A stretch of 64,000 bases of DNA from Eledone cirrhosa (Eukaryota): positions 44,950,001-45,014,000 of the forward strand of contig OZ024753.1 of assembly GCA_964016885.1 (NCBI GenBank), given 5' to 3'. Shown one piece after another: positions 23,301-26,300 of this stretch. The notes beneath the pieces are model-generated. The model did not search any database. It had not been told where the DNA came from and saw only the letters and a list, made by a program, of their open reading frames with translations. Within the stretch, counting starts at the first letter, position 1, and the number at the start of each line of letters is the position of its first letter. The position numbers and the translations under genes were made by a program.

Positions 23301-26300
23301 TAGCCGTTTAAAGTTAGTGATAGACATGTAAACTGTAAACGGAGCCAACACCAGAGCAAAAGACAGCAGCGTCACCGAGGAGTACCGGGCAACCTCTCTA
23401 ATGATTTTTTAGTCAAGCCAGCACACTCGCAGCGTTGCCTCGGGTGATGGCGAGGCTGATGCGCTGGAACAACCAAGCGCCCTCACGAGATTCGCCATTT
23501 ACCTCTATTAGGCGAGCCGCCAGTGAAGAGAGGAACCTCGCAGTCAGCAGCCCGACTCCCCCAAACGTCTCGAAAGCCACAGGCTTATCTAGTTCTGTAC
23601 AGGTAATGGTGGTGTTTATTACATAATAGCAAGAAATGAACTGAAACATTTGCTATGCCTTTCTTCTTTCGTTTACTGACCATTTTTGGCACAAAAATTA
23701 CTGTACCTAATCACGTGACTTATCAATCAATAAAACTGCATTTTAATCAAATAGCAATCTGAGCCAGCGAATATGAATAAACGAAGTTAATTTTAACCTG
23801 TAAGTCAACAGGTTAAAATTAACTTCGTTTTTATATATATATATATATATATATATATATATATATATAACGAAGGAAATGTGGTAAGGAACCAGGTGGA
23901 CCATAACGCACCAAAGTACTTAATACTTAGGGTAGTAGAGTGGGTATTAGGAACGAGTAGGACCCCGACGGCTGAGCTCAAGCCGTTTCGACGGCTAATT
24001 CTGTATATATATATATAACGAAGGAGTTGTGGTAAGGAACCTGCCGTCGAGGTCATAGATTTTCATATATATATATATATATATATATAGAGAGAGAGAG
24101 AGAGAGAGAGAGAGAGAGAGAGAGAGAGAGAGAGAGAGAGAGAGAGAGAGAGAGAGAGAACAAAGAAAGTGTGGTGAAAACCAGGTGAACCATAACGCAC
24201 CAGAGTACTCGATACTTAGGGTAGTAGAGTGGGTAATAGGAAAAGAGTCAGGACCCCGACGGCTGAGCTCCGACCGTTTCGACAGCTAGATAGGAACTGC
24301 GTTCGGATCTAGGTGCCGAAACGGCCGAAGCTCAGCCGTCGGGGTCCTTACTCTTTTCCTATATATGTGTATATATATATGTATATATGTATATATATAT
24401 ATAGAAGGTTATTTGTCACTAATATACAAAGCATCTCAATGAAAAATTTGCTAAAATATAATTCAGAATAATTTATACAAAGTTACCGAAGGGTAGATTC
24501 CTAGTAAAGTAACCTAAAAGAAGAAAACCCTACTTGGACGGTATATATCTAAACTGTACTCCGCGAACAAGAGAACGAAATAATTTCTAGAACATTTAGT
24601 AGACAAATTACCGTCCCTTTTCTAGAGTTATTCCCCTTATAAAGCTATTCAATGATTCACCAACGAATGTAGAAATTAAAATATCTACGCAAAAGATGCT
24701 GAATTAAATATAATATATTGTACGTTGTTATAAAGAGGAAACCACGTTCAAAGTTTTGTTATATTCAATATCTTACGATACCTAACACAATTTTAGTAAA
24801 TCTTTCAAAATTCTTAATAGTGTGTATTTCATTAGAAATATGGTCATGAAAGTGTTCAAAGTTTAACTAAGAGTAATTGAAAGAAGAAATATTAATGGTG
24901 ATGCTGGGATCTAAATATATATATATATATATATATATATAATAGTAATAATAATAAATGTGAAGACTAAAATCCGAAGAGGGCTCGATAAGGATTATAT
25001 ATATATATATATATATATACAAAAACCTTAGAGAAAATATTTATTAAAATAATAGATTAAAGTTTAGGCAAAGAATCGCTGCTTTCACCTTTAACGGGAT
25101 CTTATATATATATATATATATATATATGTAGGAGGTGAGTTTTATTGTAGTACAATAAAGCAATGCAGATATCGGATAAGAAGCACTCTACAGTTTGTGG
25201 GACTGGAGTATGCATAATATAAGAATATGTTGATTTAAAACTGCACTATCAACAAGTGTTTTTTAGCCTTCATATCATGTTCTCCTGTTTTATCTGATGA
25301 AAACGCAAATATTATTGTTTGATGATGTTTGTTTTTGAAATGCGCATAATAAAATATATGGAACTCCTTTAACCATCTTTTGATCTTATATTATATATAT
25401 ATATATATATATATATATATATATATATATATATATATATATTGGAAAATGTGTGAGATCCTTAGTACAGTTAGGTATATTTAAAAAAAAAATATGATTT
25501 CACTTGTAGTTTGTATTCGATAAAAATTTAATTTCATAATTTTGCTATGTAGATCTTATTAACTTTCTGGAGAACTTTCTCACATTCCTCGGTGACGATT
25601 GTCAAACTGATCTAAAGTTATAAGGTGTTACAGCAACACATTACAACTTTATATCAGCTTGACAATCAACACCGACGAATGTGAGAAAGTTCTCCAGAAA
25701 GTTAACCAGGATTTTTAAGAAAAACTTTCCACCAAAGTTAACAAAGGACTTATTAGATCTACATAGCAAAATTATAAAATTTAATTTTATAGAATACCAA
25801 CTACAAGTGAAGTCATTATTTTCCTTTTTTCAAATATATATATAAACCACAAATAAAGATTCAAGCCTGTATCAACATTGAGAAGTATAAAATATATAAC
25901 TTACTCCATCGAAGCATGTCCGTGATGCTGTGTCATTATACCCAAATGATGGACCTTCACATACAGCGCTTGGAAGAGCTAAAACAGCCCTTAAATATTC
26001 TTCAAATTTTTCTTGTATTTGATAACCACTTGAATCAGAGATTTGAGTAAAAATGTCTGCAAGAATATGGAAATGTCAAGATACATGTAAGATATATATT
26101 CCTTGAAAGTCCTTTCTTTATTGACTGTATCTGAGTTGGTGTATAAATTATAATCCTTCTGTAACTAAACTGCCTGAAACCACACCTGATTTTATGATAT
26201 AAAACCATACGTTTTTTTTATGTTTTATATTTATCTAAACACCTTCCATCATAATTTAATGTAAAAATCTTTGTTAACACTTTAGCATTTATATTACTCT

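Follow-up and report, generated by a model that had tools for sequence, protein, structure and literature searches.

A hammerhead ribozyme in a dystrobrevin-like intron of Eledone cirrhosa probably belongs to the rearranged repeat end of a Hydra-type Penelope-like retrotransposon

The role of the hammerhead ribozymes of Penelope-like elements (PLEs) is stated as unclear in PMC8557442. Within the PLEs, the closest described system is the Hydra clade (Craig et al. 2021, PMC8557442). Its members have a single ORF with RW(K/T) and DKT motifs, a CxCx5C linker, no CCHH motif, and CxxC and CxH around the E and N residues. They carry a canonical hammerhead near the 3' end and insert into (TA)n, and their pLTRs occur in tandem and inverted arrangements that have a tail on one side. 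Minimal PLE hammerheads are of type I, with a long helix II and a short palindromic helix III, and are predicted to cleave as dimers (Cervera and de la Pena 2014, PMC4209133); the same paper proposed a circle model for PLE copies longer than one unit. For PAc, a Poseidon PLE of Anolis, two internal RT starts were found in vitro, with uncut RNA as the dominant template (Frangieh et al. 2024, PMC11167929). Metazoan non-LTR retrozymes, whose type I hammerhead derives from PLE pLTRs, occur as dispersed monomers and as head-to-tail units that each contain a ribozyme (bioRxiv 10.64898/2026.07.22.740005). The element described here shares all of the listed traits of the Hydra clade and of the minimal PLE hammerheads. 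With the retrozymes it has in common the pLTR-derived type I motif and the dispersed monomers, whereas its short copies are either single or inverted head to head.

The DNA analysed, called the window below, is a stretch of 64,000 nucleotides from E. cirrhosa (assembly GCA_964016885.1, contig OZ024753.1, positions 44,950,001 to 45,014,000). The original prediction was an intact type I hammerhead in a dystrobrevin intron, interpreted as one unit of a family that would be either a retrozyme or a non-autonomous PLE. Judged by its sequence, the motif is real and of a known kind: the type I core (CUGANGA, GAAA and UH) and stems I and II are all present at 25286-25356. A type I descriptor found two sites in the window, this one (core at 25294) and another with its core at 48405, and none in any of 30 block-shuffled windows. 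The MFE fold contains stems I and II, and its stability is unremarkable (z -1.56; 15 of 200 shuffles were equally good). The hammerhead search that had been proposed thus succeeded with the descriptor but not with Rfam, whose hammerhead models gave no match to the motif at the gathering score and none at E<=10. Stem III had been described as the 6-nt palindrome UGCGCA and has to be corrected to 8 nt, ATGCGCAT.

The placement of the motif was right. Since dystrobrevin-like exons lie on the minus strand on either side, the hammerhead is intronic and antisense to the host gene. The two exons encode the two halves of PF09069, the dystrophin-family EF-hand, a ZZ domain match is also present, and the best PDB matches of the exon at 25905-26054 are dystrobrevins. 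TRF likewise places (TA)n tracts on both sides of the motif (Table 1). The ~265-bp block between them (25128-25392) is non-microsatellite DNA, as had been stated, but it is not a single unit: 25128-25394 is a 267-bp 5'-inverted end fragment without an ORF, made of two opposed pieces. We number the element from 25225 as +1, with the element end spanning +1 to +256 and the predicted cut at +124.

Table 1. Coordinates of the features discussed, in positions of the window
Feature	Position	Strand	Basis or remark
Tail arm	25128..25224	-	element +256 back to ~+160; 100% to L111 monomer 3756-3852
Tail arm 3' end, outer fixed end	25128	-	putative RT start 1; 13,207 exact tail-end 22-mers
Inverted ribozyme arm	25225..25394	+	element +1 to +170; 99.4% to L111 monomer 3596-3766
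Inner fixed end (right end of ribozyme arm)	25394	+	putative RT start 2; 48 of 88 arms without tail
5'-end hotspot +1, putative capped transcription start	25225	+	42 of 88 arms at -2..+2; TA-joined ends; preceding G
Type I hammerhead	25286..25356	+	sequence, type I descriptor, fold and variant comparisons
Hammerhead stem I	25286-25293 / 25349-25356	+	sequence
Hammerhead core	CTGATGA 25294-25300; GAAA 25337-25340	+	sequence
Hammerhead stem II	25301-25336	+	36 nt: 15 pairs (4 G.U), one C.U mismatch, 4-nt loop
Palindrome of stem III	25340-25347	+	8 nt
Predicted cut	after H17 = A25348	+	element position +124
(TA)n target, left flank	25103..25127		TRF
(TA)n target, right flank	25387..25442		TRF; overlaps the AT-rich end of the element
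Dystrobrevin-like exon upstream of the host intron	25905..26054	-	PF09069 E 4e-11; dystrobrevin chains E 1e-12
Following dystrobrevin-like exon detected, at the far end of the ~12.7-kb intron	13044..13151	-	PF09069 profile 61-89, E 2.5e-9
ZZ domain match	12515-12670	-	dystrophin-family ZZ

The same element end is found on three copies with an intact ORF (L111, L142 and L143), in line with the linkage to an RT/GIY-YIG ORF that had been suggested as a check. L111 combines an inverted arm with a direct 5' repeat, an 800-aa ORF that is intact, and a 3' repeat; its unit has 3,852 nt, and units of 3,555-3,887 nt occur in further copies. At L032, L111 and L142-L148, tail and hammerhead are part of tandem and inverted pLTR structures. 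The L111 ORF contains RWT, DKT, YRDDG, CxCx5C, YFG, CxxC and CxH and lacks CCHH. Its RT motifs read RRLRWT, SDKTNN, FDI and YRDDG (RWK in 8 of the 10 aligned homologs listed), and those of the linker and EN read CNCRIKNKC, CNLCLNEK, NRRSDLFSICLH, YFG..R, E and N. The protein is 33-39% identical to metagenome proteins. Searches of Pfam and PDB with the ORF and with a 12-protein alignment gave no meaningful match; among its ESM Atlas neighbours, GIY-YIG is annotated on 13-50% and RVT_1 on 18-77% of the members. Motifs and Atlas neighbours together point to a single ORF with an RT and, at the C terminus, an EN of the GIY-YIG type. These are the features described for the Hydra clade in section 11 of PMC8557442, and we thus classify the element, by motifs rather than by an RT tree, as a putative autonomous Hydra-type PLE.

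The family is young and very abundant. In the whole genome there are 88 exact copies of the 86-nt ribozyme, 8,705 of the arm-start 26-mer and 13,207 of the tail-end 22-mer, while only 219 tail ends continue into the 5' UTR. A fragment search of the same genome gave at least 72 matches, with 40 of 597 candidates scored. Of 91 tail ends sampled by position, 89 enter TA or CA repeats. The PLE link, the multi-copy family and the (TA)n targeting of the original prediction are all borne out by these counts and by the RT and GIY-YIG motifs. Among 77 related metagenome loci, 17 had a descriptor match (16 on the ORF strand), and several of these hammerheads share stem I with the window motif and have a palindromic stem III.

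Several traits set the element apart from the Hydra clade as described in PMC8557442. Its unit of ~3.85 kb exceeds the "generally <3 kb" given there, a descriptive rather than diagnostic figure; its tail measures 86-89 nt, compared with 30-40 nt described for PLEs; its stem II has 36 nt; and its copy number is far above the figures found stated for Hydra. Further differences from the clade as described there are an N-rich insert and a long 3' UTR with internal repeats. The insert, ~70 aa rich in Asn and Pro at ~555-625 of the L111 ORF, precedes the CxCx5C linker and is missing in 10 of 10 aligned homologs; the 3' UTR of ~1.4 kb has internal duplications whose number varies by subfamily. The family had been suspected to be uncatalogued, and it is distinct from the octopus Hydra family in the supplement of PMC8557442, as its protein start and ribozyme are unlike those of Hydra-1_Obim. 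Set against the excerpts of that supplement, it is a new Hydra-type family, and a closer one may exist. At L143 (1406-9901), each of the two inverted arms exceeds one unit in length and crosses the tail-to-5'UTR junction; one of the arms has an intact ORF.

The right ends of the copies fall on two fixed sites, +170 and +256. Of the 88 arms with an exact ribozyme, 48 stop at the inner site, 38 run through the tail into TA and 2 through the tail into the 5' UTR. The tail-less right ends lie at 6057-6068 of L031, mostly at 6067. By analogy with PAc, where two internal RT starts downstream of the hammerhead define the tail, both sites would be internal RT starts. Priming on both DNA strands and an uncut RNA template would be further features in common with PAc, although the evidence is genomic here and biochemical there (PMC11167929). 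The PAc starts lie within the ORF, ~30-40 nt apart, whereas those of the E. cirrhosa element are both in the 5' UTR, 86 nt apart, and show short AT microhomology to the target.

The left ends have a hotspot at +1: 42 of the 88 exact-ribozyme arms start at -2..+2. For a sample taken in order along one contig (C1), 91 tail arms were found and 87 kept after two junction arms and two misaligned ones had been dropped (L111 numbering is 1 nt longer than the window-based numbering). Among the 87, 22 start at -2..+1, 29 upstream (3 of them by alignment overshoot) and 36 downstream, and none starts at +122..129, around the predicted cut. Seven of the 24 tail arms ending at +2 to +200 do so at +156..166 (1.3 expected, P 5e-4). 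Such a cluster would be expected if both primers act on one RNA, and TA microhomology may contribute to it. The tail arm of the window copy, with its end at about +160, belongs to this class. Genome-wide, 554 TA-joined ends lie at +1, but the cut has just 11, and 16 were counted at a control position, +48, which has the same CATA context and a microhomology similar to that of +1; the cut thus shows no excess of TA-joined ends. Because of this distribution, the short copies are likely to stem from uncut RNA. Left ends at -212, -217 and -829 were rejected as true ends and correspond to subfamily divergence points.

The element has a C before +1. In 1,676 of the 8,705 arms this base is G, and 2,309 arms read through exactly. 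Among the non-C junctions of the young subfamily, 13 of 25 have a G in this place, compared with 1 of 19 among the other short ends (Fisher p 0.001). An untemplated 5' G in L1 and SVA has been taken as a copied cap (PMC4859970), and the extra G at complete 5' ends is a further likeness to L1. For some of the junction G's (those of L124, L128 and L131 among them), the partner arm is a possible template too, and the ATAT at +1, microhomologous both to itself and to (TA)n, may make the hotspot look larger than it is. The best reading of these ends is still that a capped transcript starts at +1 and is copied through the uncut ribozyme, and most short copies were likely made from such uncut, capped RNA. 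A literature search that did not extend to most subscription papers, among them the original work on the Penelope promoter and transposition, turned up no mention of a cap-G hotspot for inserted PLEs.

Taken together, the window fragment is probably the hammerhead repeat end of a Hydra-type PLE, inserted via two RT starts on uncut, likely capped RNA. Pol II transcription would start at +1, and the GIY-YIG domain of the element would nick both strands of (TA)n. Each nicked 3' end would then prime RT internally, one at +256 and the other at +170. In the window copy, the +170 cDNA would have passed the uncut ribozyme to the RNA 5' end, whereas the +256 cDNA would have halted close to the second primer once 97 nt had been copied; both cDNAs would then have been joined head to head. 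In L1 twin priming, a 5' inversion arises at a second priming site in the same way. L1, however, primes at the poly(A) tail and at a random site, the E. cirrhosa element at two fixed internal sites.

There are three other readings. That the 265-bp block is the unit by which a retrozyme or a non-autonomous PLE family propagates itself, as originally proposed, seems quite unlikely to us. Short forms do prevail (13,207 tail ends against 219 junctions), the architecture of the window was found at no fewer than 13 loci with 84-100% identity, and an internal promoter, as reported for Penelope (PMC8557442), could let solo arms be transcribed and copied again. However, the head-to-head junctions vary among similar copies (the tail arm ends at 5998-6062 of L031), and since they differ from copy to copy, the short inverted copies appear to be separate events. 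The common ribozyme variants also occur at tail-to-5'UTR loci (L199, L279, L275, L274 and L277), and the block is a rearranged end of an element that also has intact-ORF copies, 99-100% identical to the end of L111. The proposed check for tandem arrays revealed no head-to-tail short units in the mapped loci, which comprise those of all 88 exact arms and a sample of the older subfamilies. Unlikely, too, is that the +1 hotspot reflects a third priming site on antisense RNA, a template that has been proposed for PLEs (PMC3846280), or an artifact of microhomology or RT pausing at the CATATG palindrome. The 554 arms that join (TA)n directly at +1 fit this idea, as do many palindromic copies centred on CATATG; it does not predict the extra G, most +1 ends join the partner arm instead of the target, and the control with the same CATA context has few ends. 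Finally, co-option of the ribozyme to regulate the dystrobrevin gene is extremely improbable. Its intronic position is all that speaks for it, whereas the hammerhead is antisense to the gene and has 87 identical counterparts in dispersed young copies; with a tail end about every 230 kb, one inside an intron is to be expected, and the window contains another hammerhead element, unrelated to this one. With no ORF and in antisense orientation to the host pre-mRNA, the window copy is likely inert, and the locus is an ordinary one with one dead copy among thousands. It is thus the family that matters, being young, very abundant and equipped with intact copies, and its end statistics offer a testable handle on PLE hammerheads.

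Most stem pairs of the ribozyme are kept among the copies. In 30 chosen variants, 96.4% of the stem cells pair, compared with 37-56% in slid controls; 186 of 500 shuffles scored as high, and there are only two two-sided stem changes within the family. Among 110 distinct ungapped variants, all eight recurrent stem substitutions keep the pair and none recurs in the palindrome, variation concentrates in loop II, at N7 and in the distal region of stem I, and the core C3 differs in six. The anticipated conservation of the stems may show in these pair-keeping substitutions, but covariation does not exceed that of within-family shuffles. Pair 10.1-11.1 has changed from G-C or G-U in older variants to A-U in the window copy. 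An A-U at this pair may weaken hammerhead activity. Between families, we compared ten stem II clusters of at least 20 nt (eight from the same genome, two from metagenomes; an eleventh, of 13 nt, was dropped). In these clusters, which are related and two of which come from one family, 67 of 70 cells pair against 44.8 after shuffling (0 of 5,000 shuffles); given the relatedness of the clusters, this shuffle count is not to be taken as a probability. Pair 4 is mismatched in all eight long-stem clusters of the same genome (C.C in five, C.U in two, C.A in one), and due to this recurrence the C.U mismatch of the window copy is probably not decay. Together with the 8-nt palindrome, the A-U at 10.1-11.1 and the missing bulge after position 9, the recurrent pair-4 mismatch distinguishes the motif from the minimal hammerheads as described in PMC4209133.

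Cleavage by the ribozyme is predicted for the dimer only. The double-hammerhead fold of the dimer has -33.3 kcal/mol, close to the dimer MFE of -34.3, and each monomer has -6.7; the predicted probability of stem III is 0 in the monomer, and that of stem I is ~0.05 in the native leader of 340 nt. In vitro, cleavage of PLE hammerheads was poor (PMC4209133), the PAc hammerhead needed protein for cleavage (PMC11167929), and one of nine retrozyme dimers was cleaved (bioRxiv 10.64898/2026.07.22.740005). The predicted dimer cut would most simply involve the 5' repeat and the 3' repeat of one full-length transcript.

How the full-length copies arise is a separate question. We compared 35 junction arms, whose loci account for 40 of the 219 places (two loci give two arms each). 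None of them starts at +1; 16 start downstream and 19 upstream, 17 of the latter confirmed by a direct motif, and the upstream repeats reach ~1.4 kb. Of the 19 junction arms that reach +1, none thus stops there, but 22 of the 48-51 tail arms reaching it do (Fisher p 1e-4 to 6e-4). As there are no such stops, the full-length copies would not come from a linear RNA capped at +1, and a circular monomer would fit them best. It is close to an even call that the 5' and 3' hammerheads of one transcript make a circular monomer from which full-length copies roll off. More tentatively, the RT starts just behind the 5' ribozyme might separate two fates, with short dead-end copies made from the capped linear mRNA and more-than-unit copies from a palindrome-paired, cut circle. 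If the circle reading is true, the ribozyme would be essential to regenerate the upstream repeat, even though it is dispensable in vitro for PAc.

Somewhat doubtful, but to be taken seriously, is the possibility that all templates are linear: the conserved ribozyme would then play no part in copying, and the repeats would arise by a jump from the 5' cap to the 3' repeat or from transcripts started upstream. That the cut has no more ends than the control (11 vs 16) agrees with this, as does PAc, where ribozyme mutants left in vitro insertion unaffected and no RNA-seq ends lay at the cut (PMC11167929). The stem I of the native leader is predicted to be mostly unfolded, and the upstream repeat of L032 (458 nt) is shorter than that of L111 (491 nt), which is compatible with read-through of the parent. 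Against it, a jump predicts a second pile-up at +1, which the junction arms do not show, pure read-through cannot rebuild upstream repeats of up to 1.4 kb, and the fold appears to be kept across subfamilies and families. Other observations weigh less. Two of the 219 junction copies begin exactly at the cut (a third match is a point change), a weak signal against 0.35-0.5 expected (P 0.05-0.09). No tandem multimers were seen as same-strand pairs ~3.8 kb apart in the first 100 of the 219 places, inspected by eye, nor on any of 29 junction-bearing strands of loci of at least 7 kb, some of them redundant. The identity of the two repeats is lower or equal within loci than between loci in 7 of 7 testable copies (two ties), and with so few copies it cannot tell circle from jump. 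The family coordinates (transcription start, two RT starts and cut, all derived from sequence) do, however, turn circle versus linear into a matter of simple assays.

The second type I hammerhead of the window (48374-48490, plus strand; predicted cut after 48451) also lies amid TA runs. It has the same stem I as the 25286 motif, a different stem II, and a stem III, ATATGTAT, that is self-complementary with two G.U pairs. Its family has at least 50 matches among 2,190 candidates and two right ends of its own. The element has no DNA similarity to L111, and an ORF was not found for the family; a fixed start was rejected as a query-edge artifact. Further hammerhead families occur in loci of the same genome (L007, L037, L208, L212, L218, L262 and others). 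Many of them share stem I and the C-mismatch at pair 4 of stem II, a combination that is possibly a tertiary-contact motif.

Other repeats were noted in the window. A GC-rich inverted repeat amid TA runs (24240-24352 and 48295-48310) contains the motif gtttcgacagctagat, which recurs beside the second hammerhead; the repeat is probably an end of another TA-targeting element. A ~100-bp block at 24997-25102, also amid TA runs, has a gatctt before the TA run that resembles the inner end of the family, and is possibly a fragment of a sister element. A marginal tRNA match at 26794-26851 (plus strand, 29.3 bits) is likely the head of a tRNA-derived SINE. Lastly, a long, near-perfect, MITE-like hairpin lies at 25548-25718, 150 nt to the right of the hammerhead fragment, where miRNA models gave sub-threshold matches only.
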